Shown: in pieces, positions 1,179 to 64,000 of the stretch | Layout of the letters: each line of letters opens with the position of its first letter | Position numbering within the stretch: position 1 is the stretch's first letter | DNA from: an uncultured Clostridia bacterium | GTDB taxonomy: Bacteria; Bacillota; Clostridia; Christensenellales; UBA1242 | NCBI GenBank assembly: GCA_944381215.1 | Contig: CALWKF010000004.1 | Coordinates: 24,657 to 88,656 of the forward strand | Length of the DNA stretch: 64,000 nucleotides | Direction of reading: 5' to 3' | The notes under the pieces: generated by a model | The model's input: the letters and a program-made list of their open reading frames with translations, nothing else | What the model was told of the DNA's origin: nothing | Database searches by the model: none | Position numbers and translations under genes: made by a program

Positions 1179-3887
1179 ATGAGTAAGAAAAATATGACCG
1201 TAGATGAAAACGGTGTGCAGATTAAGACCGTAGTAAAAAAGCGCGGTGGAGTCGGTGCCTTTTTTTGTGGCTTCTTTTTCTGCCTGTTTTTTATAATCGT
1301 GTCCGTTGTAGGCTTGGGGCTATATTGCTACTACAATGTAACACTGTCTAGCGTGGAGCGACTCTTAGGGGTAACTATCCCGCTCGAGGGTACGTATAAA
1401 GATTTGGCTCTAAAAGAATTGATTGCCGAAGGCGTCGCTTATCGCGATATCTCCTTATCAGGACTCGAGGAAATTGGCGTGGAATTGCCCGAAAAAATTC
1501 CAGGGACGGAGATTCAACTCACCCCACTATATACCTCAACAATCGACTTTAACGGCGAAAATGTCGCAGTGAACCAAATTCGCATTATCGACATCGCAAA
1601 CGGCCTCGATGAGTTTGTTTCGGCGATTTTGCCCGTGATGTACGGCTACACGACCGTGCAACAAGTGCTCGACACCGCGCAAGTAACTTTACCTACTGAT
1701 TTAGGTTACCCAGCACTTACCGAGCCATATTACAACATTGGCACGGCGGAGCAACCGAGACTCGCGACCCTTGGCGAGCTCACGATTTCCCAAGCACTCG
1801 ACATCTTGCCCCAGCATTACAGCACGGAAAACCTCACTGTTCAAGAGGCTGTGAACGCACTAGGCCTTAGCATCCTCGACGTAGAGGAGGGTGAGGAGGA
1901 TGTCTACGCAGACTTGCGTAGTCTCGCAATCACCTCGATTACTACCGACCTACTGCTTGACAGCGTGGACGGCGCATTTTTAAACAATCTAATCGACCTT
2001 AGCGATTTCCCTTTTGCAACTTCGCCCGAGTTTAACTCGACAAAATTAAGTGGAATGCTCGACTACATTAGAGCTGTTCCCCTAGGCGAGATTATCACGA
2101 TTCCCGAAACCACTCCCGACAGCACCGCGACCGACCGCTTGCTTTCCGCCCTGCGCACCGTAACTTTTACCGATTTGAGTGAGGGCGACATCGTCGAAAA
2201 CATTACCGCAAAAATTGACAAGAACGACCCCGACCTAACCTTAGGCGAGTTCTTGGGAATGGCAGAGAGTAGCAACCTGGCTTTCCTAAACGACATCAGT
2301 TTTACTGAGTTACTCCGCGACCCGAGCACGACCTTGACTGACACTCTAAACACGGTCTACATCGGCGACTTTCTAACTCTCGAGAGCGTAGTACCCGAGG
2401 ACTTTGCCACCACGAACCCCGAGTTCAGCGCAATTCCGCTCGACACTTCACTTAGTAACTTAAAGGCCACAATCGCAGGCCTCACAATCAACCAAATTTT
2501 CATCCCTTCAGAACTATCTTCCCTCGACCTAAGTGTTGAAGAACAGAACATGACCATGCTCGAACTTTTAACCAATCGTGCGGGCGCGACCCTAGGCAGT
2601 ATTCTTAATATCGACGCATCGCGCAGTGGCTACCTATTAGTACTCGCAAATTCGACGAGCGAAAACTTTACCGCAACCCTTGATTCGGCCTCGATTTACG
2701 ATCTTCTGGGTGCCGAAAACGGCCTTTCGACTGTCGCACGGCTTGCGGGCCTGAGTATGCAGGAAATTTCCGAGAGTGAGGACCTAGTTGGCTTGCTTTC
2801 CGAGAACTTTGGGACTTTAGGTGACTTATTAGGCGTAAGTGCTAGCGACGGCGGAATTTTGAGTATCATCGCAAACGTAACTTTTGACGACCTTCTCGGC
2901 GCAAACGCAGGCGACGCAGTCATGAATGCTCTGCGTGGTAGCCAAATGACCTTGGGCGAGATGCTCGAAGGGACCTTCGAGAACCCGATTATCGAGTCAG
3001 TTATGTCTATTGAGGTTGGTGCGCTCTTTGGCGATTCCCCCGAAGATGCCTTTATCACCGCGCTGTCTGGCAACACCTTAGGCGAACTCTTTAACATCAC
3101 CGACAACACTGGTCTAATGTCCTTTATTAAGAATGTGAGCATGGCAGACTTGCTCGGGCAGACCCCAGGCGTAACCCCTGCCGACGCGATTATGAACGCA
3201 ATCTGCGGGACCAATAACGAGGTAACCCTGGCGCAGTTCTTAGGTAGCACCGAAAGCGACGGAATTATGTCCATCATCCAAAACGTGAAAATGGCCGACC
3301 TGCTTAGACCCTCTGGGGACGCGACCGCAGGCGATGCGATTATGAATGCCCTCGCTGGTAGCAACATGACCTTGGGGAGTTTGTTAAACATCGAGAACCC
3401 GACTGGTATCACCGCAATCATTTCAAATTTAAATGTTGGCGACCTCTTTAATGGTAGCGCGAGCGCGACCGAGGCTTTCCAAGGCGTAGTAAACGACATT
3501 AAACTTATAGACGTTTTCCCGAACATCGCAACAGGCGAGGACAGCATTCTAAAAACAATTTACCAAAGCAACCCCGATATTAAAGTTGTAGACCTAGCAA
3601 GCAAAATTGAAGGCCTAACTCTTAAAGATGTTATCGGCGAACAGACTGGAATTTTCTGCCTAATCGACGAGAATAGTTACCAAACTACGAAACTGGGCAA
3701 TCTGTCTACCTTGAAGGCAAAGACCGAAATCAGCATTCAAGACTTGTATAGTGCTGGCGTAGTTACTGAGGGGCAGTTGTCGGAGTTAGAGAGTTTAGGC
3801 GTTGACCCAAGTAGTACGACATTCGCGACAATTATCAATGCCTACATCGACGACCTTCGCACCGCACAAGAGGCAGGCGGTAGTTAA
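1179..3887 (+). CDS. Large acidic membrane-anchored repeat protein, function unknown
   Basis: RBS AAGAAAGGGG precedes the ATG. There is an N-terminal TM helix (GAFFCGFFFCLFFIIVSVVGLGLYCYY). The C-terminal half has ~45-aa degenerate repeats (G-I/L-L/M-S-I-I-x-N-V-x-F/M-x-DLLG ... GDA-V/I-MNAL-x-G-x-M-TLG). All antisense ORFs inside it are composition artefacts. Confidence 0.8.
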   Translation: MSKKNMTVDENGVQIKTVVKKRGGVGAFFCGFFFCLFFIIVSVVGLGLYCYYNVTLSSVERLLGVTIPLEGTYKDLALKELIAEGVAYRDISLSGLEEIGVELPEKIPGTEIQLTPLYTSTIDFNGENVAVNQIRIIDIANGLDEFVSAILPVMYGYTTVQQVLDTAQVTLPTDLGYPALTEPYYNIGTAEQPRLATLGELTISQALDILPQHYSTENLTVQEAVNALGLSILDVEEGEEDVYADLRSLAITSITTDLLLDSVDGAFLNNLIDLSDFPFATSPEFNSTKLSGMLDYIRAVPLGEIITIPETTPDSTATDRLLSALRTVTFTDLSEGDIVENITAKIDKNDPDLTLGEFLGMAESSNLAFLNDISFTELLRDPSTTLTDTLNTVYIGDFLTLESVVPEDFATTNPEFSAIPLDTSLSNLKATIAGLTINQIFIPSELSSLDLSVEEQNMTMLELLTNRAGATLGSILNIDASRSGYLLVLANSTSENFTATLDSASIYDLLGAENGLSTVARLAGLSMQEISESEDLVGLLSENFGTLGDLLGVSASDGGILSIIANVTFDDLLGANAGDAVMNALRGSQMTLGEMLEGTFENPIIESVMSIEVGALFGDSPEDAFITALSGNTLGELFNITDNTGLMSFIKNVSMADLLGQTPGVTPADAIMNAICGTNNEVTLAQFLGSTESDGIMSIIQNVKMADLLRPSGDATAGDAIMNALAGSNMTLGSLLNIENPTGITAIISNLNVGDLFNGSASATEAFQGVVNDIKLIDVFPNIATGEDSILKTIYQSNPDIKVVDLASKIEGLTLKDVIGEQTGIFCLIDENSYQTTKLGNLSTLKAKTEISIQDLYSAGVVTEGQLSELESLGVDPSSTTFATIINAYIDDLRTAQEAGGS

Positions 3888-4249
3888 ATAGCCATAAAAT
3901 ATTAAAAATAAAAAACATCACTAAAATAATAACAAAATTAACTTACTAAAACTAATAAAAACGCAAAATTACCGAAATTTTAAAACTTAAAATTAATGTC
4001 AAAGCCTACTAGTTTGCCCTAATTTTGCCCGAAAAAAGAAAAAATATTGTGCAATATGCCCAATCGCTAATATTTAAGCAAAATTTGTATTACGAATTTG
4101 GTTAAAATCACTTTTAGCCGTTTAAAAGACTTGACCGAATATAATTATTTAGAAAAATAGCCTTAATTATTATGCTTAAAAAGTTGTAATAGTTACTATG
4201 TTTAAAGACGGAAGTTTGACCGAATTTGTTTTTACACAAGGAGAGTGTT

Positions 4250-5947
4250 ATGGAAGAAGAAAGAAAGATTGGTAGACCCAAATCAAAGGTTGCACCCGAG
4301 CCAAAGCGAGCAAGAGGCCGGCCTAGAAAGGCTGAGCCCGCCGAGCCCGAGGTGAAGCGTCCGCGTGGACGGCCGAAAAAGGAGACGGCTGAGCCTGTGT
4401 CCACCGAAAAGCGGGCAAGGGGTAGGCCTAGAAAGTATCCCCCGAAAGACGAAACTGCCGAAAAACGCCCGCGTGGCAGACCCAGAAAGAATGAGGTGAG
4501 GGCAACGACGGAACCCGAGGTTAAACGCCCGAGAGGACGGCCTAAAAAGGAGTTAATTACTGCTGATAAGGCTGTTTTGGAGGGCAATCACCCTTACACC
4601 GACATTCCTCAAAACCCCGTCGCCCCGATATCTCAGTACATCGAGATTCCAACAGCACCCGAGACCGTTCGGGAGGATGTGGACACTGCGGACAAGGCGG
4701 TTCTCGCTAACGGCCACCCGTATGCTGAGGTCGCGCCCGTGCCTAATGTAGACTGGGAGAACGTGGACCTTGACGACGTTTTTGAGGAAATCACCCCGAT
4801 TGAGAAGCCTTACCTCGATACCGAGGACGAGGTGCTCGAAAAGGGCGAGGCCTACAAGCGGTTAAAGGAGCGCGCCACCAGCATTATTGCCAGCAAAGAG
4901 CACGTAAAGCCCGCAAAGCACATGGCGGACAACCTCTTAAAAGACGACCGCCCGCTACCCCCGATTATCGCCACTCCGCCCTTGGCGAAAATGAACATCA
5001 GCACGCCAAAAACTCCCGTAAAAAAGGCCTCGAAGCCCGTGCCAAAGGTCATTTTAAAGGCGAACCCCATGCCGAACATGGTAATCGTTATCACGGGTGC
5101 CACCAGCGGAATGGGTTTTGCTATGGCTAAAAAACTCGCGGGCCTCGGGCACATCGTGATTGCTGTCGGCAGAAAACCAGGTCTCAGTCGCGATGCGCGG
5201 GACGAGATTTTGGACACGTACCCCGACGCAAACATTCACTACTTAATCGCCGATTTGAGCCTCATGAGTCAGGTGCGAATTTTGGCCGAAGAGATTCAGG
5301 AAAAGGTGTTCGAACTCGGGCGCGAGTGCGTCGACTGCATCATCCACAACGCCGCCGAGGACCTGGACGCGAGCAAACTCACCTACGAGAATCTCGAGTA
5401 CATGTGGGCGACAAACTACCTCTCTGTCGTACTGCTCACGAAACTAATTCAGCCTCTGCTCGATGCCTCGCGCAATGCAAAGGTAATCACGTTTACCACG
5501 CGCCGTGCCTCGCAGAGTGCAAAAATAAATTGGAGGTACCTGCGCGACCGCTCGGGCAAGTTTGCCTCAAAAATTTACGAGCAAACGAAACTCGCCGACC
5601 TTATGTTTGCGCTTGAATATGACCATCAACACGCCGACCGTGACGACATTCACGCATATTGTGTTGACCCGGGCAACGTCAACACGACCTTGCGCACGCG
5701 AAATGCTAGCGGAATTCGGCACTTCCACTTCGACTTTTGGCGTAAAAAAGGCAAGTCAATCGAGGACGGAATTAAGACAGCAGTTTATCTAGTGCTGTCG
5801 AAAAATCTTCCAACACACACGGTTTTATACCATGATATGCGTGCGGTGGAGCCTAGCAAGTTCGCGCTTGACCAGGAAAACCGCAAGGCACTTATGAAAG
5901 TTACCGAAATGGAACTTCGCGAAAACAACGAAATTAAAATTAAGTAA
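4250..5947 (+). CDS. AT-hook repeat protein fused to a short-chain dehydrogenase/reductase (SDR) domain
   Basis: ATG at 4250 follows AAGGAGAG. The N-terminus carries six GRP-core AT-hook-like motifs (IGRPKSK, RGRPRKA, RGRPKKE, RGRPRKY, RGRPRKN, RGRPKKE). The C-terminus has the SDR signatures TGATSGMG and YEQTK. Confidence 0.8.
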   Translation: MEEERKIGRPKSKVAPEPKRARGRPRKAEPAEPEVKRPRGRPKKETAEPVSTEKRARGRPRKYPPKDETAEKRPRGRPRKNEVRATTEPEVKRPRGRPKKELITADKAVLEGNHPYTDIPQNPVAPISQYIEIPTAPETVREDVDTADKAVLANGHPYAEVAPVPNVDWENVDLDDVFEEITPIEKPYLDTEDEVLEKGEAYKRLKERATSIIASKEHVKPAKHMADNLLKDDRPLPPIIATPPLAKMNISTPKTPVKKASKPVPKVILKANPMPNMVIVITGATSGMGFAMAKKLAGLGHIVIAVGRKPGLSRDARDEILDTYPDANIHYLIADLSLMSQVRILAEEIQEKVFELGRECVDCIIHNAAEDLDASKLTYENLEYMWATNYLSVVLLTKLIQPLLDASRNAKVITFTTRRASQSAKINWRYLRDRSGKFASKIYEQTKLADLMFALEYDHQHADRDDIHAYCVDPGNVNTTLRTRNASGIRHFHFDFWRKKGKSIEDGIKTAVYLVLSKNLPTHTVLYHDMRAVEPSKFALDQENRKALMKVTEMELRENNEIKIK

Positions 5948-6813: not shown

Positions 6814-6960
6814 AATATTCACTCACTTTTAATTTTTATAACCTTATTGTATCACAAATCGACATTTTGTCAAGCCAATTTTTATAATGTCGAATCCGTG
6901 TAAAACAAGCGTGCTAAGCACACATTATATTTTATATGAAAACTTATCAAAACTTTCTAT

Positions 6961-7006
6961 ATATTGAAAGTATTTTATATAATATATTGAAAGTATTTTA
7001 TATAAT
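6961..7006. repeat. Perfect 23-bp tandem duplication (ATATTGAAAGTATTTTATATAAT x2)
   Basis: Read directly from the sequence. It is flanked by TTATCAAAACTTT copies at about 6944 and 7023. Confidence 0.9.
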
Positions 7007-7094
7007 TTAATTAAAATAAAGAATTATCAAAACTTTTTACTAAAAAAATATAATTAAACAAGTGAACTGCCTCTTGTCCTCTTAAAACACTACT

Positions 7095-7640
7095 CAACAA
7101 ACCATAAAGTTGTAGTAGAACAAAGCGGATGAGATTCTTCGTCTCAGGCTTCGAGGGGCGGGCTCAGAATGCCTTCCCGCTTGCGGGAAGTCTGGCGCGT
7201 GAATGATTGGTATAATTAGAAAAGTATGTTCTCGCGCCAGCCCAGTGCCTTATATTATACAAAATATGAACAACTACGCACTCTGAGTCGACCCGCGGTG
7301 CGTAGGTGCACATCCAATCTATTTAGGTCATCCTGAGTGTCGACCCGCGTAAGCCTTCAGACGAAGGATTTATTCCACTTAAAAAATGCTAAAAAACCAT
7401 AAAGTTGTAGTAGGATAAAGCGGATGAGATTCTTCGTCAAGGGGCTACGCGGGGCGGGCTCAGAATGACAGTTATTTAATTGGTTATTGTGAAAGCAGAA
7501 TAGAACGACTTCAAAATGCCTCTATAACTCAGCGCATATAAAAAGCAACAATAGGAACATTTAGCATGACGCTGCCCGGAGGATCTCATTCCTGCCGCTT
7601 AAATTAAACCCACCCCGCGTAAGCCTTCGTAACTCAGCAT
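7095..7640. repeat. Mosaic intergenic repeat locus R1 (several modules, both orientations)
   Basis: A-module GGATGAGATTCTTCGTCTCAGGCTTCGAGGGGCGGGCTCAGAATG lies at 7127-7171 and again at about 7420-7466, with an inverted copy at 7328-7376. CUUG hairpin at 7173-7190. Long hairpin CTGGCGCG(7192-7199)/CGCGCCAG(7233-7240). GGTGCGTAGGTGCAC at 7297-7311. Confidence 0.9.
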
Positions 7641-7681
7641 AAAAAAATAAAAAAGCCGTAGATTATTTAAAATCTAGTGGC
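7641..7681 (-). terminator. Terminator downstream of tRNA-Arg
   Basis: On the minus strand, hairpin GCCACTAGATT...AATCTACGGC is followed by TTTTTTATTTTTTT. Confidence 0.6.
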
Positions 7682-7684
7682 TAG

Positions 7685-7759
7685 TGGTACGCCCAGAGAG
7701 AATCGAACTCTCATTAAAAGCTCCGGAAACTTTCGTGTTATCCGTTACACTATGGGCGC
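7685..7759 (-). tRNA. tRNA-Arg (anticodon CCG)
   Basis: Reverse complement is GCGCCCA TA GTGT AACGGATA ACAC G AAAGT TTCCGGA GCTTT TAAT GAGAG TTCGATT CTCTC TGGGCGT A CCA. This gives a full cloverleaf with a TTCGATT T-loop and encoded CCA. Anticodon loop is TT-CCG-GA. Confidence 0.93.
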
Positions 7760-7767
7760 GTGTTTTA

Positions 7768-7796
7768 ATTATATAATGAATTCGCAATTTTTTCAA
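7768..7796 (-). promoter_or_regulatory. Consensus promoter for tRNA-Arg
   Basis: On the minus strand, TTGAAA, a 17-nt spacer, then TATAAT, ending 7 nt before the first tRNA base. Confidence 0.7.
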
Positions 7797-7876
7797 GTAT
7801 TATGCCACTTTTTTCGGCTTTTAGTTTGAAAAATTCAGCTATTGTGATATAATTTAAAAAAATTCAAGGAGTTGTT

Positions 7877-10278: not shown

Positions 10279-10415
10279 ATATATTGAAAGGAGAGAATGA
10301 ATTTATTGTTAACTCGGCTCTTTTTTTGCAATTTTTTATTAATTTTTGTTATTTTTCACATTTTTGTGCGTTTTTTTATTATTTTTTCGTGATTTTTTAT
10401 TATTTTTTGTGTTTT

Positions 10416-11885
10416 TTATAGTTTTTCGATGAGTTTGAGCCATTCTTGGTAGTTGTTTTCGCGCTTGATGTCGTGGGCGGTGGGGCGGTAAATTTTTGCG
10501 CTTTCGTAGAGGTTGTTTAGGTCGCGCATAGACTTAAACGCGCCGAAGCACAGCCCCGCCATATAGCACGCGCCGAGGCTAGTCGACTCGGTCACTTTGG
10601 ACACTGCCACAGGGAAGTGCATTATGTCGCTCTGGAATTGCATAAGTAGACTATTCTTGGTCATCCCGCCATCGACTCGCATTTGCTTTTCGCTCACGGG
10701 GAAACTTTCTTGCATACAGTCAAACACCGCACGAGTGTTGTAGGTAATGCCTCGCAACACCGCCCGCACAATGTGTGCCGAAGTTGACGCGAGCGTTATG
10801 CCCGCAAACTGTGCCCGAGCGTTACTCTTCCAAAAAGGCGCACCGAGGCCCGAAAGTGCTGGGATGAAGAACACTCCACCAGTGTCGGGGACACTGCCTG
10901 CTAACGTCTCGCTCTCGCCAGGGGAGTCGATGAGCTTAAACTGGTCTTGTAGCCAGTTGATACACGAGCCCGCCGAGTACATATTGCCCTCCAAGGCATA
11001 CGCAACACCCTCTTTTGTCCTCCAAGCCACGGTCGTGATTAGCTGGTCGTGTAGAATGGGGGTGCTACCTATGTTTGCCAGCATAAAGGCGCCCGTGCCA
11101 AAAGTGGTCTTGAAGTCGCCCTTGTTTATGCAGTTTTGCCCCAAAAGCGAGGCCTGCTGGTCGCCAATAAGCCCGCCGATTGATAACTTCTTGCCCGCAA
11201 TTACGCAATCGCCGATATACTCATCACAATTTACAATATTAGGGAGCGCATTCATAGGTACGCCGAAAAACTCGCACAGTTCGGGGTCCCAGTTTTGCGA
11301 TTTGAGGTTGTAGAGCAAGGTCCTGCTCGCGTTCGAATGGTCGGTGACAAATTTTGCGCCGTTTGTGAGGCAGAATATTAGGTAACTGTCGAGCGTGCCG
11401 AGGCAAAGCCTGCCATTTTCACTTGCTTTTTTCACGGCCTTTGAATTGTTCAACAGCCACGACATCTTGGTCGCGCTAAAATAAGGGTCGATGCGCAGGC
11501 CCGTGCGCTTGTGAATCATCGAGGCGGTGCGTTTATCTTTCTGCAACTCCTCGCAGTACTCAAAGGTGCGCCGACACTGCCACACGATCGCGCGCTCGTA
11601 GGGCTTGCCCGTTTCGCGGTCCCATGCAACGGTCGTCTCGCGCTGGTTCGTAATACCTACGCCGTAGATTTCCTCGGCATCTAGGTCCGCAATCGTACGC
11701 TTCAAGCACTCGACAATCGCCGCGACAATCTCGACTGCATCTTGCTCCACCCAGCCAGGGTGCGGGTAAAATTGGCTGATTTTCTTTTGAAAAATGTTGA
11801 ACTGCTCGTGCGCCACTACGTTATATGCAAGGGTGCGTACCGAAGTCGTGCCCATGTCTATGGCAATTATATATTTTTTGTCCAT
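10416..11885 (-). CDS. glpK: Glycerol kinase
   Basis: The 489-aa product aligns by eye along its length to FGGY-family glycerol kinases (IIAIDMGTTSVR..., GITNQRETTVAWD, WLLNN, GDQQASLLGQ, TFGTGAFM, GGMTKN). Confidence 0.95.
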   Translation of the reverse strand: MDKKYIIAIDMGTTSVRTLAYNVVAHEQFNIFQKKISQFYPHPGWVEQDAVEIVAAIVECLKRTIADLDAEEIYGVGITNQRETTVAWDRETGKPYERAIVWQCRRTFEYCEELQKDKRTASMIHKRTGLRIDPYFSATKMSWLLNNSKAVKKASENGRLCLGTLDSYLIFCLTNGAKFVTDHSNASRTLLYNLKSQNWDPELCEFFGVPMNALPNIVNCDEYIGDCVIAGKKLSIGGLIGDQQASLLGQNCINKGDFKTTFGTGAFMLANIGSTPILHDQLITTVAWRTKEGVAYALEGNMYSAGSCINWLQDQFKLIDSPGESETLAGSVPDTGGVFFIPALSGLGAPFWKSNARAQFAGITLASTSAHIVRAVLRGITYNTRAVFDCMQESFPVSEKQMRVDGGMTKNSLLMQFQSDIMHFPVAVSKVTESTSLGACYMAGLCFGAFKSMRDLNNLYESAKIYRPTAHDIKRENNYQEWLKLIEKL

Positions 11886-19940: not shown

Positions 19941-20122
19941 CATTTAAGACAAGACTTGAAATTGAAATTTTAATAAAAGCGTATGGCTTAGCAAACGATT
20001 AGTAAATTTATCGGGAGTGCGCCTACGCACCTCATTTAAGACAAGACTTGAAATTGAAATTTTAATAGAAGTGCATGGCTTAACAAACGATTAGTAAATT
20101 TATCGGGAGTGCGCCTACGCAC
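19941..20122. repeat. Tandem direct repeat, two 92-bp units
   Basis: Units 19941-20032 and 20033-20122 differ at 4 positions by hand count. Each ends in the hairpin GTGCG-CCTA-CGCAC. The second ends 3 nt before the RBS of the 20137 gene. Confidence 0.9.
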
Positions 20123-21349: not shown

Positions 21350-21494
21350 TATAATATACTAGAAAAAAGTTTTTTATTAGTGGCTTTTTGGGGTGCTGTG
21401 CAACAATCAGTATGTCTGCCTTTAATAAAAATTAGAATTTTTAATTAATTTTTATGATTTTTTCATATTTATTTGCAATTTTTCTATATTTATT

Positions 21495-22559
21495 TTAGTC
21501 TTTTTGCTTTTCGTTGTATTTGCAAATGCCGAAGTTATCGGTGGTTACGTAGCCACTGGGTGCAGCGATTACGTCGGGAATGCGGTTTACAATAGTAGCG
21601 CAAGTCAATTCAACAGTGTTCGGGCGACTTACAACTACCGTGGTATTAGGCTCGCCGAAAATAGTCCACTCGTTCTTGTCGAAGTCCTCGGGCCCGTAAA
21701 CTTTTCCGATACACTCGGCCTCAATTTCGATGCCTTCGGCGGTTTGGGTGGTAACGACTGCGCTCATACCTGTTGCGTTTCCGCTAGGAATGGTCATGTT
21801 GAGGGTGCTACTGTTTAGGTCGCCCTCGTGGGTCATCGGCACGCACTTTTGAGTCTGTGAAACGACAGTCAAGCCCAATTTGCTAGCCAACCAGCCGTTC
21901 ACATTCCACATGTAACTGGGCGCATACTTTCCACTTTCGATAATCTTTTGACGCTCTTCGGCAGAAATTTTGTCGGCAGAAGCGACTTGCTCGTCAAATT
22001 CTTTAAGATTTAGCCCAGCACCGTGCGCCCTTGCCAGCGCGATGCCGTAGTCCTCAACGTTGTAACTACTGCTACCTTTAATTTTTGTGATTTTGTGGGT
22101 AACGCCCGCGATAGTTGTAATCAAGTTGCCCCAGAAAACGTCCTGGTAACCAGCGCCAGTGATTGTACAGCCGTTCTTTTTAGCGGCCTCGTCGATTTGT
22201 TTAAATAGATTTGGGTTACTGTTTTGAGGGAAGAAGGCCTCTTCACAGGTGGTGATTGCGTTCACACCCGCATTAGCGCACGCCAGCAGAGGCTCTGCAC
22301 AGTCCGCGAGCAAACTCATTGTGGTAACGATTGCTACATCAGGAGCGATTGCTTTGAGTCTTGCCACCATGTCCTGATTTGCCGACTCAATTGCGACACC
22401 GAGTTTGCCGACCCCAGCGAACTCGCCAGCATCGGTACCAAACTTGCTCTCGTCAATGTCGAAAGCCCCGACACATTCCATACCACGCTCAATGCAGTAC
22501 CTGATTGTGTATTTTGCCATTTTTCCGCAACCATATTGCACGAATTTAATTTTTGCCAT
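21495..22559 (-). CDS. NAD(P)-dependent amine dehydrogenase / DapB-N-like oxidoreductase (2,4-diaminopentanoate dehydrogenase-like)
   Basis: The N-terminus MAKIKFVQYGCGKMAKYTIRYCIERGMECVGAFDID has a Rossmann pattern like that family. Length is 354 aa and a good RBS is present. Confidence 0.5.
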   Translation of the reverse strand: MAKIKFVQYGCGKMAKYTIRYCIERGMECVGAFDIDESKFGTDAGEFAGVGKLGVAIESANQDMVARLKAIAPDVAIVTTMSLLADCAEPLLACANAGVNAITTCEEAFFPQNSNPNLFKQIDEAAKKNGCTITGAGYQDVFWGNLITTIAGVTHKITKIKGSSSYNVEDYGIALARAHGAGLNLKEFDEQVASADKISAEERQKIIESGKYAPSYMWNVNGWLASKLGLTVVSQTQKCVPMTHEGDLNSSTLNMTIPSGNATGMSAVVTTQTAEGIEIEAECIGKVYGPEDFDKNEWTIFGEPNTTVVVSRPNTVELTCATIVNRIPDVIAAPSGYVTTDNFGICKYNEKQKD

Positions 22560-23153: not shown

Positions 23154-23989
23154 AATGGTGGTATTTTTTGTCTATAGGCGTGCTGATTGTGGACCTAGTC
23201 AGCAAGGCACTCCTCGACGGCGAAACAATCGAAGTAATAAACGGTTTTTTCGGCTTCGTGTCCGTGCATAATACGGGCGCGAGTTTCGGCGTTTTCGCGG
23301 GCGCGCAAACCTTTTTTATAATTATTAGCATACTTTTCGCACTTGGAATGATGGCGTTCGATATTTTTTATAAAAAGGGCTTCGGCGCAAACGGCTGGTA
23401 CCGCGTGGGCTTTACGCTAATTCTTGGCGGGCTACTAGGTAACCTCATTGACCGAATTGCATTTGGCTATGTGCGCGACTTTGTACATCTTGAGTTCATA
23501 GACTTTCCCGTGTTTAATGTCGCCGACATCGCACTCACAATCGGCTGTATATGTATTATTGTCTTCTTAATCTTCTTTTTTAAAACCGACATCGATAAAA
23601 AAGTCGTGATAAAAAGTAGCACGGCAACCCCCGAAATTACTAATATATCTCAAATAAACGATCCCACGTCCTCAAATTCCCAAAACCACGAAAAGGATAC
23701 GAGTATCAAGGAATTAGAAGACATAAATTCACAAGATATAAAAAATACTAATTCACAAAATGCAAAAGCCACTGACAACATAAACGCAGAAAACAAAGCA
23801 AGCATTGAAAAGTTAAATGCGGGAAACAAGGCAGACACCGAAAATGACCCTACTTTACCAAACAGCAAAAAGTCTAAAAATAAAGCAAATGACCAAAATC
23901 AAAATACCAAAAATGAAATAAAGACAAAAAACGACGAAAATTCACAAAAAACCACAAAAAATCGTAAAAAAACGAAAATTAAAGGATAA
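23144..23989 (+). CDS. lspA: Lipoprotein signal peptidase II with a ~130-aa low-complexity N/K/S-rich C-terminal extension
   Basis: LspA core motifs are present (NTGASFG, FGYVRDF, FNVADI). The tail from about residue 150 is encoded by A-rich sequence. The gene abuts rluD. Confidence 0.85.
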   Translation: MQIKWWYFLSIGVLIVDLVSKALLDGETIEVINGFFGFVSVHNTGASFGVFAGAQTFFIIISILFALGMMAFDIFYKKGFGANGWYRVGFTLILGGLLGNLIDRIAFGYVRDFVHLEFIDFPVFNVADIALTIGCICIIVFLIFFFKTDIDKKVVIKSSTATPEITNISQINDPTSSNSQNHEKDTSIKELEDINSQDIKNTNSQNAKATDNINAENKASIEKLNAGNKADTENDPTLPNSKKSKNKANDQNQNTKNEIKTKNDENSQKTTKNRKKTKIKG

Positions 23990-26738: not shown

Positions 26739-26926
26739 CTACTAAAATAAAAAATAAATATTGAATAAATAATTTAATCAAATTAATTTATAATAAAAGT
26801 ATAATAAATAATTAAAAATTGCAAAAAATATATTAAAAATAATAAAAAAATCGCAAAAAACACAAAAAATAAATAAAAAATAATAAAAATTGTGTAAAGT
26901 CTAGGCATTTGGTAATAATTATAAGT

Positions 26927-27911: not shown

Positions 27912-28355
27912 TTATTTTGCTTTAATTATAGCATAATTACGATACTTTTTTATCAACTTCGCAAAAATAGTGCGCTCTAGACAAAAGCCTACAACAAATG
28001 CTAAAATAAGATACGCTCGCACCTCGCCATAGTTTAGCCAAAGCATATTTAGGTAAATAATTGCCCCACAGATTAGTACTATTAGGGCAGTTTTTAAGAC
28101 CGAAAAAACGGGCGAGTTTAGGTTGAAACTTCTAGGCTTTTTTGTTTTCTTTTCAAGCCTAACTGGCGTCAAAAATTCAATTTTTGCTGATTTTTTTGAT
28201 ATTTTTTCGCATTTTTTATCAATTTTCTTTAATTTTTTACTATTTTTTAGCCATTTTGGGAAAACCGAAAAAAGCCTAAATAGAAGCGCGCATAATATTC
28301 CAATGTCTAAAAATATCAAAAACAGCCACCCCTGGCCCAAGGTCGTAAACAACAT
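27912..28355 (-). CDS. yabQ: Spore cortex protein YabQ with a Lys-rich insertion
   Basis: Position is immediately after yabP (TAATG overlap). TM helices are present. The central K-rich segment KNSKKLKKIDKKCEKISKKSAKI is encoded by A-tract-type sequence. Confidence 0.6.
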   Translation of the reverse strand: MLFTTLGQGWLFLIFLDIGILCALLFRLFSVFPKWLKNSKKLKKIDKKCEKISKKSAKIEFLTPVRLEKKTKKPRSFNLNSPVFSVLKTALIVLICGAIIYLNMLWLNYGEVRAYLILAFVVGFCLERTIFAKLIKKYRNYAIIKAK

Positions 28356-33304: not shown

Positions 33305-33566
33305 CGCAAGAAATAAAAAGCCCCTTTGCCATTTGGTATTAGAGGCTTTTTTTTGTTTTTTTAATGCGGTTTTTAAAAGGATGAGATGTATTTTTTTATA
33401 TTTTTCGCGAATTTTTCGAGATTTTTGGGAAATTTGTTTAAATTTATTAAAATCGTTTGTAAATTTGGAGGCAATTAGATATAATATGATTAATGACACA
33501 GTGTGCCGAGTTTTTGCTGATAATTTGAAAAATTTCGCGCATACTAGGTAAAAATAGGGGGAGTTT

Positions 33567-34989: not shown

Positions 34990-35210
34990 AAACCAACCAC
35001 TCTAAACAAAGTTGCCGAAATTTTAAATTATATAATATATATCGAATAAAAATTATATAATAATTATCAAAATTAAATAAAAAAATAATTAATAAATAAA
35101 AAAATAATTTAATATTTAAAAAAGCAAAATTTATTAAATTAAAAATATAATTAAAATATAAAAAAATTGTAAAAAAATAAGTGAAAAATTAGTAAATATT
35201 AGGAGTAATT

Positions 35211-47971: not shown

Positions 47972-48010
47972 AAAAAACAAAACTTTTGATTTTTCAAGGT
48001 TTTGTTTTTT
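47972..48010. terminator. Bidirectional terminator
   Basis: Stem AAAAAACAAAAC/GTTTTGTTTTTT between convergent genes. Confidence 0.6.
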
Positions 48011-48251
48011 AATCAATTTCAAGGTCGTCTCTTTCAAATATTGGGTCGTCGAAGAATTCGGCAGTAGTCATGCCAAGCCCTCGAATAATTAATAACACGG
48101 TTTTTAAGTTTATTCCACTAGTACGTTCACCCATTAAACATTTCATTGTATTGTGTGGTATAGCGGTGATTTTCTCTAATCGATATTGCGACATCTTCTT
48201 TTCACGCAAAATATCACTAATTCTTTTTGCTACGGCAGTGCTAACTTTCAT
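48009..48251 (-). CDS. Small XRE-type HTH protein, paralogue 1
   Basis: 80 aa, with the HTH segment MSQYRLEKITAIPHNTMKCLMGE. It is tandem to a close paralogue. Confidence 0.75.
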   Translation of the reverse strand: MKVSTAVAKRISDILREKKMSQYRLEKITAIPHNTMKCLMGERTSGINLKTVLLIIRGLGMTTAEFFDDPIFERDDLEID

Positions 48252-48293
48252 AATTAACCTCGGGTGTTAAATTGGGGGTGTAAGCAGAGGTAT

Positions 48294-48536
48294 TTAATCA
48301 ATTTCTAAATCTTCTCTTTCAAATATTGGGTCGTCGAAAAATTCGGCAGTCGTCATGCCAAGCCCTCGAATAATCTGCATAATCGTCCTAAAATTTACGC
48401 TCGTATACCGTTCACTCATTAGTGCCTGCATAGTGTTGTGAGAAATGGCCGTGATTTTCTCGAGCCTGTATTGAGTCATATTTTTCTCGCGCAACAAATT
48501 GCTCACTCTTTTTGCAATGGCAGTGCTTAATTTCAT
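48294..48536 (-). CDS. Small XRE-type HTH protein, paralogue 2
   Basis: 80 aa, about three quarters identical to the 48009 product by hand count. The C-terminal 26 aa are nearly identical. Confidence 0.75.
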   Translation of the reverse strand: MKLSTAIAKRVSNLLREKNMTQYRLEKITAISHNTMQALMSERYTSVNFRTIMQIIRGLGMTTAEFFDDPIFEREDLEID

Positions 48537-48992
48537 AACTTACCTCGCACTTGGCTTTTTTCTTATTTTATAATAGTTTTATTTTAAAATACGTACATTA
48601 AAATAAACACACCCTCATTTTTGCTTGCCAAAACCCACATAATATGCTATAAATTAATTAAATCATATTTTATTAGATAAATATTACTACATAGAGAGAC
48701 CTGAATACATGTGCATAAAATACTCGGTGCTATCTAATAAACCGCAAAATGAGGTGCCTAATGACAAAATATGCGGTAAAGTGCCTAAATTTAAGCATTA
48801 TGTAGTGAAAATTTGCGGGATACTTTAATTTTTAGAGATATTTAATATAAAAGCCGTGTTTAAACAAAATAAAATTAAATTAGATAAAAATAAAATAAAA
48901 TTAGATAATTTTTAAAAAGATAGCCAAATAATTTGTAATTTTTCGTTATTTTTTGCTATACTAATTATAAATAGGTTTGAAAAGAGGTATGT

Positions 48993-50840: not shown

Positions 50841-51063
50841 GTTTATCTAGTGTTTTATTCTTATTAAAATATAGACTCAAATTAAAGAATACCATGTTGC
50901 AAAAAGTCGGGAAAAAGCTTCCTTCTTTGCGATTTTTAAAAATCTCAATTTACTTATTGACATTGCGGGCAATTTATGCTAAAATAAGGTTAATTAAAGC
51001 GAATTTATTTGCTATTTTTTACGAATTTTTCGCTATTTTTTAATATTTTTTCGAGGTGCCATT

Positions 51064-51856: not shown

Positions 51857-52057
51857 AGTTTATTTTTAAATAATGAATAAAATAATTAAAAATCATTAAA
51901 ATGATAAAAAATAATTTAATTTTAATAATAAAAATAATTAATAACAAATATGAATTAATAAATTAACGAAATTATAGAAAATTATATAAAAATAATGAAA
52001 AAATATAAAAATTTAAATAAAATTAATTAAATTATGCGAAATTTTAATAAAATTAAA

Positions 52058-59947: not shown

Positions 59948-60060
59948 AAATCAAGAAATTGATGAATTTAAACCTTATATTTGCTTTTATTTATATAATA
60001 AAAATTATTTAAAAACTTTAAAAAATGCAAAAAAACACGAAAAAATCGCAAAAAAATAAC

Positions 60061-60088
60061 AAAAAACACGATTTTTTTCGTGTTTTTT
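60061..60088. terminator. Bidirectional terminator
   Basis: Stem AACACGA/TCGTGTT with a T7 loop, flanked by an A-run and a T-run. Confidence 0.7.
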
Positions 60089-60196: not shown

Positions 60197-63100
60197 TTAT
60201 TGTTGCTTTGTAGTTTTAGTTGTTGATTTTGCTGTTTTTGGCTCGGCAACATTAGATTTTGTGGTAGTAGTGATTGAGGTTTTTACGCGCTTTATTGAGC
60301 CAGTTTGTGCTTTTGGTTTTATGGTAATTGTGCGGTTACGTGGCTTTTTGGGAGTGGGCTCTTGATTGTTTTCTTCAATAAATTTTTGTCTATTTTTCTC
60401 GGCTGTTTTTACAATTAAGTTAATGACTTTTTGCTTGTGAAGCCACCAGTCACGACTCCACACACGGATGATGTCCCAGCCACGCGCGTGCAAGAATGTA
60501 GGTCTATAAACATCGCGCTCAAGTAGCGAGTCAGAAGAGCAGTATGCCGTATAGTCGCACTCAACTCCAACTAGGTACCTGTCCAGTGTTTTATCATAAA
60601 CGGCGAGCGAAATTTTATAGTCGGCATTACCAAGGTTCGTCTCGACTTTTAGACCCAGCTTTTCGAGTTCTGCCTTGATTTTATTTTCAAGGTCGTTTAG
60701 CACCAGTGCGGGCTTGGGCGTTTCGGGAATAGTCAGCACGTTTTCGAGCACAATTTTCGCCTCAGTCTTGTTGCCGTTCGACACTGCACGGACATAGCGG
60801 AGGTACTGCTTAAATAGTTTCGGCCCCGCATTTTTAGTGCCCTCGACGTTCAACTCCTCGGGCTCAATGCTGGTTACCACAAAAATCTTTTCCTTCGCAC
60901 GCGTGATTGCGACGTTCAGGCGGTTTTCGCCACCCTCGGTAGACAAGGGCCCGAAGTGCGCCACGACTTTGCCGTACTCGTTTTGCGCGTAACCGATACT
61001 AAATATAATGATATCGCGCTCATCACCCTGCACGTTTTCGAGATTTTTCACAAAAATGCTGATATCCTCGCCATTTTCCTTGCGATTTTGCTCTTTTAGG
61101 AACTGGTCGCGGAACTTGGGGTTGCGGTTGCATTCTTCGTCGATTGCGTCCTCAATCGCGCTCTCTTGCTCGGCGTTAAAGGTGATAATACCTATTGATT
61201 CGTTATTTTTGCGGGTATTAAATAGTTTTTTCACTAACTCCGCCACCGCCTTTGCCTCGGCAATGTTCTTGCGGTCTATCCAACGTCCGTCGACCTTGAT
61301 TCGCGTAATCGGCTTTTTACCAAGGTTGTGCGTGGTATTAGGTGAAATCTCGAGACGCCCCTCGTAAAAGGCGTTGTTCGAGAAGTTGATGAGCTCCTCG
61401 TTTTTACTGCGGTAGTGGTAGGTAAGATGCGCGCTCTTGTACCTCGTCATCGCGAGGTCAAGCAGGCTCTCCACCTCGAGTGCCGCCTGTGTGTTAAGGT
61501 CGAGCTCGTCGACATCGTCGTTACCCAAATACCGCTTCATAAAGGTCGCGGTCGGGCGCAACTGCTTGGAGTCTCCCGCAACTACGATGTTTTTGCCTCG
61601 GTAGATTACGGGCAAGGTGTTCTCGATAAATACCTGGGAAGCCTCGTCGAACAGCACGATGTCGAATAGATTGCGTACAAGTGGCAAAATCGTGCACGCG
61701 CCCTCGGGGCTAAGTAGCCAGCACGGGAAAAGGGTGAAGAGGTATTCGCCGTACATCTCCATGAATTTACGAATCGGCCACTGGTTTTGCTGTTTGGACA
61801 TTTGATAAAGGTAGTTCTTGTTGTCAGGGTCGCGGTTAAATTTTTCGATGTACTCTTGCCTAAATTGCTCATCGCAATACGCCTTAGAGACAGAATTTAA
61901 CTCATTTTTCAGCGAAATAATGCGATTTTTTGCGTTTTCGTAGTCAATTATCAAGGACAACTCAGATTTGTACTTGTCCTCGAGCAAGGTTACCTCGTAG
62001 TAGATTCGAATAGGTAACAGACGTTCCAAGGTCTCCATGTAGTGCGCCTTGGTGGTCGTGTTTTTATAGGCAAAATTGAGTATTGTGCGCTCAATGCTGT
62101 TAAGTTGAGTTAGCATCGCGTTGACGTCGCGCGACTCCACATATTCATTTAGCGCGTTCAGCAAAAGTTTGAGGTACAGCATATTGCCGTTTAAGACATT
62201 GTCCACCATCATCGCGTACCCTGTGTCCGTCAGTACATCGCGTAAAAAGGCAAAGTCCTCGACATACTCGTCAATTGCCGTAATGGTGTCGATAAAATTC
62301 TGCTCGGTCTCTTTTTCCTTTTTGTTCATCGCCATTTTTGCAAACGGATAAATGGGGAAAAGAACGTAACTCGTCTTTAAGGTGTTGTAGGTATTGCGGT
62401 TCGCGTCGCGCGCCACAAATTTAACCAAGGGTTGCAGTTTGTCGATATCGAGTTTTTTATCTAAGTAGTACGCAATCAACTGGCGACTGTTCGGGTACTT
62501 CGTCATGTCAAAAGGTGCCAGCCTGCCACTTAGGAGTTTACCGAGTTTCGAGGTCGCCTCGGTCAGCGTGTGGAACTCAATGTCGGGCTTTAAGTTGTCT
62601 ATAAAGGGGTTAGATTTCTTCGCCTCGAGGAATTTGTAATAAAGTTCCGCCTTGTTCTTTTCCTTGATTAAACGCAGGTTATCATGCAAATCTTGGTAGG
62701 ATAGTGCCAAAATTTGAGGGGAATGTAGCATATTTTGGTAAATTGTGTAGTCGTAACTCGTCTTGCCTAAAACGTAACTATTGGCATACATTTCCTGCAA
62801 ACTCAGGCCAAAAGGCTGGGGAGTGAACAATACATTGCTAATTGTCTCTAGCTCCGCAGTCTCGACGGCAATTTTGTTCTCAATGTCTTCGTACTGGCCA
62901 AGATTTGTATTAACTGGGGTCTCCATAACCTGCGCGTGGGTCGTACGTACACGGTCGTAAAATACGGCCTTATTCTTCTCGGGGTCGAGGATATACATAG
63001 CCTTGGAGTTCAGCACGCCCAAGCGGTTAAACACCACATCGAGTGCCGCTTTCTTCTGCGATACGACCAGCACGCGCTTGTGCTTTGCAATGGCGTCGGT

Positions 63101-64000
63101 AATGGTGTTTACAATGGTCTGCGATTTACCAGTGCCAGGGGGACCGTAGATGACGATGTTACCGTTTTTATTGAGGTTTAGTATCGCATTTTGTTGCGCG
63201 TAGTCGAGACTTGAAACGGTAAACAGACGCTCATCAGGGTGCTTGATTTTCTTGGGACGCTTGGCATACAAGAGCTCGTCAATCGCCTCGTTCGTGAGTC
63301 TGCGTCGCTCGAGCAGGGTGTAGTCATTATATATAGAGTTTGCCAAAGGGAAACGCCCGAGCAGGCAGTATTGCTTGACTTCTAGCGGGTCATTAACCTG
63401 GGGCTCCTTCGACTTTTCGAAGTCAAAAATGCCCTTTCTTGCGGTGTAACCAATGTGAAAGCCAAACTTGCGTAAATAATTTACAACATCTTGAATGCTC
63501 TTAAATTGGCTCGAGATTTTGCCCTTAAACTCCATGTCCATGTCCTCAAGATTTAAGCGGTGGTGCTGTGCATAGGCAACGATGAATACCTTGTTTAACT
63601 GCACGGGCTCGTCGCGCTTTAACTCAATTTCCACGGTTTGCTCGTCGGGCATCTCGATAGTAACAGGGAAGAGGAGTAGAGGTGCCTTGATTAGGACATC
63701 CTTGCCAATCGCACCCTGCACAAAAGGATAGCCGATATACAATTCATACCGCCCAGTTTCCTTCGCAAACTCCTCGATATCGCGCTTGAGGTTTTTGAGG
63801 ACTGTTACCTGCGAAGACAGCGCGCGCTTCGTTTCATCGCGACGGCGACGCTCCACACGTAGGCTCTCCGCGCTCTTTTCCTTGCCTTCGAGATTTTCGA
63901 GTGCCTCATAAGACTTCTCCATTTTACGCTCAACTCCCAAGGTCTTATACAGACGCTCGCGGGCGGACTTGCCGATTACGGTAAACGAGTACGTTTTCTC
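60197..64000 (-). CDS. Large SF1 (Upf1/DNA2-like) helicase with a C-terminal DUF559/Vsr-like endonuclease-fold domain; the N-terminus probably lies beyond the right edge
   Basis: Walker A GPPGTGKS, DEASQ, later helicase motifs (GDxxQL-like GDSKQLRP, VNVAITRAK), and the C-terminal VGVECDY...RGWDIIRVWSRDWW. The frame stays open from 63940 to position 64000. Confidence 0.85.
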   Translation of the reverse strand, partial: EKTYSFTVIGKSARERLYKTLGVERKMEKSYEALENLEGKEKSAESLRVERRRRDETKRALSSQVTVLKNLKRDIEEFAKETGRYELYIGYPFVQGAIGKDVLIKAPLLLFPVTIEMPDEQTVEIELKRDEPVQLNKVFIVAYAQHHRLNLEDMDMEFKGKISSQFKSIQDVVNYLRKFGFHIGYTARKGIFDFEKSKEPQVNDPLEVKQYCLLGRFPLANSIYNDYTLLERRRLTNEAIDELLYAKRPKKIKHPDERLFTVSSLDYAQQNAILNLNKNGNIVIYGPPGTGKSQTIVNTITDAIAKHKRVLVVSQKKAALDVVFNRLGVLNSKAMYILDPEKNKAVFYDRVRTTHAQVMETPVNTNLGQYEDIENKIAVETAELETISNVLFTPQPFGLSLQEMYANSYVLGKTSYDYTIYQNMLHSPQILALSYQDLHDNLRLIKEKNKAELYYKFLEAKKSNPFIDNLKPDIEFHTLTEATSKLGKLLSGRLAPFDMTKYPNSRQLIAYYLDKKLDIDKLQPLVKFVARDANRNTYNTLKTSYVLFPIYPFAKMAMNKKEKETEQNFIDTITAIDEYVEDFAFLRDVLTDTGYAMMVDNVLNGNMLYLKLLLNALNEYVESRDVNAMLTQLNSIERTILNFAYKNTTTKAHYMETLERLLPIRIYYEVTLLEDKYKSELSLIIDYENAKNRIISLKNELNSVSKAYCDEQFRQEYIEKFNRDPDNKNYLYQMSKQQNQWPIRKFMEMYGEYLFTLFPCWLLSPEGACTILPLVRNLFDIVLFDEASQVFIENTLPVIYRGKNIVVAGDSKQLRPTATFMKRYLGNDDVDELDLNTQAALEVESLLDLAMTRYKSAHLTYHYRSKNEELINFSNNAFYEGRLEISPNTTHNLGKKPITRIKVDGRWIDRKNIAEAKAVAELVKKLFNTRKNNESIGIITFNAEQESAIEDAIDEECNRNPKFRDQFLKEQNRKENGEDISIFVKNLENVQGDERDIIIFSIGYAQNEYGKVVAHFGPLSTEGGENRLNVAITRAKEKIFVVTSIEPEELNVEGTKNAGPKLFKQYLRYVRAVSNGNKTEAKIVLENVLTIPETPKPALVLNDLENKIKAELEKLGLKVETNLGNADYKISLAVYDKTLDRYLVGVECDYTAYCSSDSLLERDVYRPTFLHARGWDIIRVWSRDWWLHKQKVINLIVKTAEKNRQKFIEENNQEPTPKKPRNRTITIKPKAQTGSIKRVKTSITTTTKSNVAEPKTAKSTTKTTKQQ

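Follow-up and report, generated by a model that had tools for sequence, protein, structure and literature searches.

An array of six AT-hooks on a short-chain dehydrogenase/reductase of uncultured Clostridia, a candidate HMGA-like anchor to AT-rich DNA

We analysed a stretch of 64,000 nucleotides from the genome of an uncultured Clostridia bacterium (contig CALWKF010000004.1, positions 24,657 to 88,656; hereafter the window), in which one gene encodes six AT-hooks fused to an oxidoreductase of the short-chain dehydrogenase/reductase (SDR) type. The product, here termed the AT-hook-SDR protein, is made of four parts, namely the six hooks, an acidic disordered segment, a conserved linker and a classical SDR domain of retinol-dehydrogenase (RDH)-like type, and its gene is paired with an upstream gene for a membrane protein. 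The hook motifs, their conservation and the selection acting on them, the disorder around them, the SDR fold, its cofactor motifs and the gene pairing were all observed. On these grounds we propose, with moderate confidence, that the N-terminus grips the minor groove multivalently, in the manner of HMGA proteins, and anchors an NADP(H)-binding SDR to AT-rich chromosomal DNA.

The first-pass annotation of this DNA had described six GRP-core motifs within residues 1–105, five of them canonical RGRP motifs flanked by K or R, and both the motif positions and Pfam agree with that description. The G of the six cores lies at residues 8, 23, 40, 58, 76 and 96; hooks 2 to 6 follow the pattern KR[AP]RGRP[RK]K, and the first is weaker (RKIGRPKS). 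When residues 1–105 were shuffled 200,000 times, at most four GRP motifs arose, compared with the six observed, and the motif [RK]GRP[RK] occurs in no other open reading frame (ORF) of at least 80 residues within the window. The Pfam AT_hook model (PF02178) scored 21.0 bits against a gathering cut-off of 17.4, with two stretches passing individually, and precomputed matches to the same model exist for many homologues. A scan with profile hidden Markov models had been suggested as a check, and both AT_hook and the SDR model adh_short exceeded their cut-offs. The features by which AT-hooks are recognized in sequence, a GRP core flanked by K or R, a score above the Pfam threshold and a disordered setting, are all present. 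At the DNA level the hooks are indeed encoded by imperfect repeats, five 28-nt copies being found at 4303–4549 (65–86% identical, spaced 51–60 nt apart). The hook spacing, previously put at about 15 residues, had to be corrected: the measured intervals are 15, 17, 18, 18 and 20 residues (mean about 17.6), nearer to 17–18.

The array is conserved among relatives. A word-indexed search of 5.8 billion proteins recovered 37 full-length homologues (35–64% identity), encoded in metagenome-assembled genomes (MAGs) of uncultured Clostridia, together with a group of short forms of 320–390 residues; the family has 43 members, and the database holds a protein identical to the AT-hook-SDR protein. All 37 full-length homologues carry three to six hooks at nearly fixed positions (G at about residues 10, 28, 47 and 65), which are kept down to 35% overall identity. 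Across the 154 hooks of these proteins G-R-P is invariant (154/154), the consensus being K-R-P-R-G-R-P-R-K. The spacing is 16–19 residues in 107 of 117 intervals, and the sequences between the hooks are variable and rich in E, P, V and T. When the short forms are included, hook number ranges from 0 to 6.

Codons were then compared between the window gene and its closest orthologue (L001, from an uncultured Christensenella sp.). The 54 hook codons differ by 5 amino-acid changes, all conservative, and 25 synonymous changes, compared with 23 and 14, respectively, in the 48 codons of the inter-hook linkers, and the two patterns of change are distinct (Fisher p = 1.5e-5). The scarcity of amino-acid changes in the hooks, next to freer linkers, is a clear codon-level indication of purifying selection on the hooks themselves while the linkers drift. 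The possibility, raised at first reading, that the N-terminus might be a non-conserved low-complexity extension is at odds with both results.

The hooks stand in a disordered and highly charged context. An AlphaFold2 (AF2) model, built on the 43-sequence family alignment, shows disorder over residues 1–195 (predicted local distance difference test score, pLDDT, about 45–55), with no secondary structure over residues 1–100, followed by a moderately confident helix at residues 200–214 in the linker (pLDDT about 82) and by further disorder up to about residue 270. The net charge changes from part to part, being +20 over residues 1–105, −19 from 106 to about 200, +10 over 200–275 and about neutral in the SDR domain. 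By hydropathy analysis the protein has no transmembrane or amphipathic segment, and its highly charged N-terminus contains no hydrophobic stretch able to act as a signal peptide. The acidic segment varies in length and sequence among homologues and is acidic in all those inspected. Two ADKAVL..HPY repeats, reported to follow the hooks, were located (Table 1), the first beginning just upstream of the acidic segment; they are clade-specific, being common only to the window protein and its closest orthologue, P0002. As to the beginning of the protein, the listed ORF spans 4226–5947 on the forward strand; the ATG at 4250 is preferred as the start because a GGAGAG lies 4 nt upstream and homologues, which likewise open with MEEE, begin at the equivalent methionine.

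The C-terminal part is a classical SDR domain, as had been recognized from its TGATSGMG and YEQTK motifs; Pfam (adh_short, PF00106; E = 7.5e-19, 68.4 bits versus a cut-off of 26.6, residues 278–484), the AF2 model (a Rossmann-fold SDR at residues 275–560, core pLDDT mostly >90) and Foldseek all agree. Against the PDB, Foldseek returned SDRs only; light-dependent protochlorophyllide reductases (LPOR) head the list, and behind them come YciK and further SDRs that depend on NADP(H); many of these structures matched with a probability of 1.00, at target-normalised TM-scores of about 0.74–0.78. In NCBIfam the nearest named neighbours are the RDH-like PRK05854 (87.6 bits versus a cut-off of 282) and PRK06197 (85.5 versus 268), both scores lying far under the subfamily cut-offs. 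The best PDB sequence relative is 3RD5 (E = 2e-8), and none of the PDB sequence relatives was informative on substrate.

Over the 43 family members the TGxxxGxG pattern, the catalytic Asn and the catalytic Tyr are invariant, and the Arg after strand beta2, which in SDRs points to NADP(H) preference, is conserved. Only two members, both of the clade P0033–P0037, lack the catalytic Lys and have Arg in its place. The NNAG position reads HNAA or HNAG in the family and has been lost in that same clade, and the catalytic Ser position is occupied by T, S, N or D. The window protein has Thr at this position, as does cyanobacterial LPOR; this residue is chemically compatible with catalysis and completes a predicted Asn-Thr-Tyr-Lys tetrad.

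The family is small and restricted to one lineage. In an exhaustive HMMER scan with the linker and SDR region as query, which covered 1.84 billion 50%-identity representatives, no more than about nine clusters belonged to the family (E below 1e-55). The next matches were ordinary SDRs of 280–300 residues (30–36% identity), without an N-terminal extension and with the usual ...SS and YxxSK motifs. Members come from animal and human gut metagenomes and from MAGs labelled "Clostridia bacterium" or "Christensenella sp."; the taxonomic picture rests on these MAG labels, and a single-protein scan of genome contigs returned only the closest genome, that of the uncultured Christensenella sp. The taxonomic survey proposed in the first-pass annotation yields about nine clusters from one uncultured Clostridia clade. 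The methionyl-tRNA synthetase (MetRS) of the window is 58% identical to that of a MAG whose AT-hook-SDR protein (P0033) is 40% identical, indicating that the fusion has persisted over deep divergence within this clade.

A gene overlooked at first reading, which we call the partner gene, is the strongest functional clue available. In all 13 independent loci compared (the window, L001–L003 and L006–L014) a gene homologous to window ORF 1179–3887, encoding 664–945 residues, directly precedes the SDR gene. The intervening gap, 3888–4249 in the window, is often only 17–50 bp in the other genomes. The partner protein begins with a short basic tail, in which K16, K20, K21, G23 and G24 are conserved, and has one transmembrane helix (residues about 25–53); its AF2 model shows a domain of all-alpha repeats, very acidic in composition (38 K+R versus 124 D+E). 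By the positive-inside rule its predicted topology is N-in, C-out. It matched nothing in Pfam, NCBIfam or PADLOC. A search for its function from the fold was fruitless, Foldseek of the AF2 model against the PDB giving nothing below E = 1. The partner family matches that of the SDR in its small size and in its restriction to the lineage. On the downstream side, a conserved gene was considered and rejected, there being no similarity between loci. The partner is also paired with short SDR forms that have 0–2 hooks (L008, L009, L012, L013), so the SDR–partner cassette is probably older than the hook array, which, to judge from the sequences, probably grew from a simple basic tail to 3–4 hooks in one sub-lineage and to six in the window clade.

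The surroundings of the gene offer potential binding sites. The first-pass annotation had described phased A-tracts around it, and the periodicity proved to be window-wide: the spacing of A4+/T4+ tracts peaks at 10, 20–21, 30 and 41 bp (z about 11–22 versus local shuffles). The segment 13441–13830 contains about 30 A5–7 tracts at 10–11 bp spacing, and Tandem Repeats Finder detected many intergenic arrays of period 10–11 or 21 in the window. Such phasing predicts intrinsically curved DNA. A-tracts have a narrow minor groove and hence are chemically sensible targets for AT-hooks; as substrates of this array they are plausible, and the comparative data give no support to a specific link. The A-tract periodicity is seen in L001, L002, L007 and L013 and is absent in L003, L008 and L010, and an apparent co-variation of hook number with phasing, suggestive with 8 loci, was gone with 13.

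In the mechanism that we propose, AT-hook-SDR would be a cytoplasmic protein of two modules, a disordered hook and acidic module (~200 residues) and a folded SDR (the C-terminal ~290 residues). The R-G-R core of each hook would enter an A/T tract by its narrow minor groove, and the six hooks, 15–20 residues apart, would bind neighbouring tracts multivalently; a stretch of 8–10 residues separating two hook cores could bridge one helical turn. Multivalent binding would keep the SDR on AT-rich, mostly intergenic chromosomal DNA, and the window, with its abundance of phased A-tracts with narrow minor grooves, speaks for such tethering to the nucleoid. The SDR is probably a dimer or tetramer, as are most SDRs, and in the window clade it is probably a competent enzyme, to judge from the predicted tetrad, with a predicted preference for NADP(H). 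It would work with the membrane-anchored protein encoded directly upstream.

Several points weigh against this proposal. We infer DNA binding from motif identity only. The forms with 0–2 hooks keep the partner, so the core function of the cassette needs no hook array, and the bulk of the partner is predicted to be extracellular, with no obvious connection to DNA. Hook number and phasing index are not correlated over the 13 loci (Spearman 0.28, p = 0.36), and L003 has four hooks but no A-tract phasing. In the SDR domain the catalytic Ser position, Thr in the window protein, is Asn or Asp in most relatives, and the deepest and most divergent full-length clade (P0033–P0037, for example L003 8001–9524) has lost both PGxxxT and NNAG. 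This variation suggests that catalysis may not be the conserved function across the family.

The same variation leads to a first alternative, which we regard as possible but unlikely, namely that the SDR domain, instead of working as a metabolic enzyme, is in the main a module that binds NADP(H) and oligomerises or senses, and that the protein is a redox-sensing architectural protein, a nucleoid-associated protein or regulator, specific to the lineage, by which AT-rich DNA is bridged or coated. It would resemble H-NS and Lsr2 in function and NmrA and CtBP in logic. The hooks are conserved at least as well as the catalytic motifs, given the variable Ser position, and the clade that lost PGxxxT and NNAG retains four well-formed hooks, while the glycine-rich cofactor motif is invariant. 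By analogy, a folded, potentially oligomerising domain joined through a flexible linker to a minor-groove binder parallels the xenogeneic silencers. The rest of the active site fits this poorly: within the tetrad, Tyr and Asn never vary, Lys hardly does and the Thr of the window protein is compatible with catalysis. Moreover, oligomerisation and abundance are putative, and the conserved partner is a membrane protein rather than a DNA-related one.

The partner protein suggests a second alternative, to which we give a similarly low probability. The basic N-terminus would bind another polyanion, such as RNA, polyphosphate or an anionic membrane, and the enzyme would serve the partner by a reduction close to the membrane, for instance of a carbonyl compound that is lipid-linked or hydrophobic, DNA being irrelevant. 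Extended AT-hooks are able to bind RNA. The constancy of the upstream partner at every locus compared, including those where the SDR has 0–2 hooks and a plain K/S/T-rich basic tail, favours this idea, as do the probable age of the cassette, the RDH/LPOR-like nature of the nearest SDR relatives, which act on hydrophobic substrates, and the envelope-polysaccharide genes near the cassette in L006 and L009. What argues for minor-groove binding over a general affinity for polyanions is that selection keeps R-G-R-P exactly, together with the K/R on either side, beyond mere positive charge, a signature of minor-groove binding; the SDR protein also lacks any amphipathic or transmembrane segment. A more elaborate model, which we consider improbable, would join the architectural role to the partner: SDR oligomers with 12–24 hooks would lie on curved, AT-rich intergenic DNA, bridging or coating it, and would tie parts of the chromosome to the envelope through the partner's conserved cytoplasmic tail, forming a lineage-specific, NADP(H)-responsive nucleoid protein that links redox state to chromosome architecture or silencing.

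Two further explanations fare much worse. That the array is a functionless low-complexity expansion, produced by repeat slippage on an ordinary SDR, is very unlikely: imperfect tandem DNA repeats do encode it, hook number does vary among relatives and the region is disordered, but the synonymous excess in the hook codons and the persistence of hook positions and of the G-R-P core in distant homologues largely refute it. Hardly credible is a secreted effector (nucleomodulin) acting on host chromatin, or a recent acquisition from a eukaryote or a mobile element. The HMGA hooks of eukaryotes follow the same KR-x-RGRP-RK pattern. The sources are animal-gut metagenomes, and AT-hook effectors are known in the parasite Theileria (PMC10241358). 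The charged N-terminus without a hydrophobic segment, the stable chromosomal context with a conserved partner and housekeeping genes around, and the lack of a full-length match in plasmid and phage collections all stand against this, and what matches the hook array best are metagenome and MAG proteins whose domains are of bacterial type (NifU_N, IS4 transposase), the single eukaryotic match (E = 9e-4) ranking far behind.

Anchoring of the SDR to AT-rich DNA, the reading that we favour, has partial precedents. AT-hook arrays of the canonical HMGA type belong to the textbook chromatin motifs of eukaryotes, and CarD of Myxococcus xanthus is, to our knowledge, the main experimentally studied bacterial example of such an array. 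CarD's HMGA-like domain binds the AT-rich minor groove and probably mediates nucleoid localisation; like AT-hook-SDR, CarD combines a bacterial folded domain with an unfolded module made of an acidic segment and several RGRP hooks (PMC4374960). The four hooks of CarD are C-terminal and follow the acidic segment, whereas the six described here are N-terminal and precede it. The folded part of CarD is the Tudor-like CarD_CdnL_TRCF domain, which interacts with RNA polymerase, in place of an SDR, and the two proteins, from Myxococcales and Clostridia, have no sequence relationship beyond the hooks. HMGA1 and HMGA2, like AT-hook-SDR, contain several KR-x-RGRP-RK hooks within intrinsically disordered sequence, with an acidic segment following them (for HMGA2, see PMC4482583). 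They are stand-alone proteins of about 100 residues with three hooks and no enzyme, whereas the module described here is an appendage on a 290-residue bacterial oxidoreductase. Multiple hooks and an acidic segment in one disordered module are nevertheless the hallmark of an HMGA-like design, and both are present. Sequence searches returned no relative named CarD or HMGA, only hook-array proteins that matched through the hooks alone. The N-terminal module is thus HMGA-like in design and is not a member of the HMGA or CarD families.

The H-NS, Lsr2 and MvaT silencers are comparable by analogy only. In these silencers a domain that oligomerises is joined through a flexible linker to an AT-hook-like (Q/R-G-R) binder of the minor groove that targets AT-rich DNA, a plan that the hooks and the putatively oligomerising SDR would resemble; their binder is a single loop within a folded domain instead of an array of free hooks. 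We know of no cofactor-binding domain described for these silencers, and no H-NS/Lsr2-type domain was matched in AT-hook-SDR by Pfam or NCBIfam; the protein is not homologous to them. NmrA and CtBP are Rossmann-fold dinucleotide binders tied to gene regulation, a relevant likeness as part of the family loses catalytic motifs. They are not known to have DNA-binding motifs of their own and act through partner transcription factors, whereas here the Tyr and Lys are retained and a predicted DNA anchor is built in. As for the SDR half, the RDH/LPOR-like SDRs (PRK05854, PRK06197; 3RD5, 7JK9, 6L1H) share the Rossmann fold, TGxxxGxG, the Arg after beta2, the Asn...Tyr-x3-Lys residues and a long insertion that separates strand beta5 from the catalytic Tyr; they differ in that the Ser of their ...SS and YxxSK motifs are both Thr here (FTT, YEQTK).

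Bacterial AT-hooks are not new, given CarD and the AT-hook-like loops of H-NS and Lsr2, and SDRs are ubiquitous. The fusion to a dehydrogenase, unfamiliar at first reading, seems to be undescribed, since a full-text literature search found no account of AT-hooks fused to an SDR, nor of Clostridia proteins with AT-hooks. The novelty lies in the architecture, a canonical and selected array of 3–6 hooks with an acidic segment on an oxidoreductase, and also the fixed two-gene cassette with an orphan membrane protein, confined to one uncultured Clostridia clade. It constitutes a second, independent bacterial use of a hook array, conserved and under selection, and the fixed pairing provides a concrete two-gene system. 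If the hooks bind DNA, they would form a portable "nucleoid address tag" for enzymes, with a bearing on chromosome organisation and protein localisation in little-known gut bacteria.

Hook arrays of the same type (KR-x-RGRP-RK) were also encountered outside the SDR family, in proteins from metagenomes and MAGs, two of them labelled as Clostridia MAGs. They accompany NifU_N with 9–18 hooks (P0045, P0051, P0052, P0054, P0056, P0058, P0060), a transmembrane segment and coiled coil with C-terminal hooks (P0057, P0064), a membrane protein with 5 hooks (P0066) and an IS4 transposase with 4 hooks (P0069). The presence of long arrays of the same hook on unrelated domains suggests that such arrays are modules portable among bacterial proteins.

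Table 1. Coordinates of the AT-hook-SDR gene, its parts and other features of the window
Feature	Position	Strand	Remarks
Partner gene	1179..3887	+	902 aa; homologue directly upstream, same strand, 13/13 loci
Intergenic region, AT-rich, partner gene to SDR gene	3888..4249	+	Sequence
Shine-Dalgarno-like GGAGAG	4240..4245	+	4 nt before ATG 4250; read from sequence
AT-hook-SDR coding sequence	4250..5947	+	565 aa + stop; ORF list and translation
AT-hook array	4259..4549	+	aa 4–100; motif positions, Pfam, DNA repeat family D2, family consensus
Six hook 9-mers	4259–4285, 4304–4330, 4355–4381, 4409–4435, 4463–4489, 4523–4549	+	
TADKAVL..HPY repeats (two)	4559–4597, 4685–4723	+	aa 104–116, 146–158
Acidic disordered segment	4565..4846	+	aa 106–199; charge count, low pLDDT
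Conserved basic linker	4847..5074	+	aa 200–275; family alignment; long forms only
PAKH motif in linker	4910–4921	+	
K[LM]NIS.P.TP motif in linker	4988–5017	+	
Classical SDR domain	5075..5929	+	aa 276–560; Pfam, NCBIfam, AF2, Foldseek, motif table, 3RD5 alignment
TGATSGMG cofactor motif	5093–5116	+	aa 282–289
Arg after strand beta2 (VGRKP)	5165–5179	+	
HNAA (NNAG position)	5345–5356	+	
TNY, catalytic Asn389	5411–5419	+	
FTT, Thr417 at catalytic Ser position	5492–5500	+	Confirmed by alignment to PDB 3RD5
YEQTK, Tyr443-x3-Lys447	5576–5590	+	aa 443–447
PGNVNT	5669–5686	+	
Further A5–7/T5–7 arrays	10321–10436, 21437–21497, 23924–23980, 26790–26890, 28177–28257		Intergenic, 10–11 bp phase
Further A5–7/T5–7 arrays, continued	33390–33445, 35046–35202, 51000–51053, 51866–52031, 60020–60071		

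Plasmid and phage collections contained no full-length match, only generic SDR-domain matches, and the PADLOC defence models matched neither the SDR protein, the partner nor the downstream ORF; an origin from a mobile element or a defence system was rejected on this basis. Ordinary chromosome makes up the remainder of the window, which encodes glycerol kinase, a DAO enzyme resembling glycerol-3-phosphate dehydrogenase, LspA, a pseudouridine synthase, YchF, MetRS and a P-type ATPase. The cassette lies beside mnmE in the window and L014 and beside parAB/rpmH in L003. In these three genomes it is divergent from typically origin-proximal genes, mnmE or parA-parB-yidC-rnpA-rpmH (window upstream flank, L004 2797–4098; L014 6408–7718; L003 947–5016). 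Other genomes show differing contexts (proS/valS, polA, ABC transporters), and envelope-polysaccharide genes adjoin the cassette in L006 and L009. The cumulative GC skew of the window has a minimum near 6–8 kb. Proximity to the replication origin was considered and rejected, as the contexts in other genomes are unrelated and the window has no cluster of DnaA boxes (19 one-mismatch sites versus 14 expected, 0 perfect).

Upstream of the SDR gene, a weak sigma-70-like TTGACC-16-AAAAAT was noted at 4131–4158, and in a consensus scan such matches were no commoner than in shuffles. An antisense ORF (4114–4587, reverse strand, 157 aa) overlaps and mirrors the hook-repeat region (GLPRGRF... repeats) and was set aside as a by-product of the hook-encoding repeats.

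Elsewhere in the window, about 1 kb without a long ORF (6823–7876) contains a perfect 23-bp tandem repeat (6959–7006) and a tRNA-Arg(CCG) gene (7685–7759, reverse strand), with the GC skew minimum nearby. A 92-bp unit is present in two tandem copies (95% identity) in the intergenic region 19941–20122, and at 48008–48547 a segment of about 285 bp is duplicated in tandem (1.9 copies, 76% identity). Finally, the region 60197–63940 on the reverse strand encodes a 1246-residue protein with DUF4011, an AAA_11/AAA_12 helicase and a C-terminal MTES_1575 restriction-endonuclease-like domain, which may be a defence or repair helicase-nuclease.

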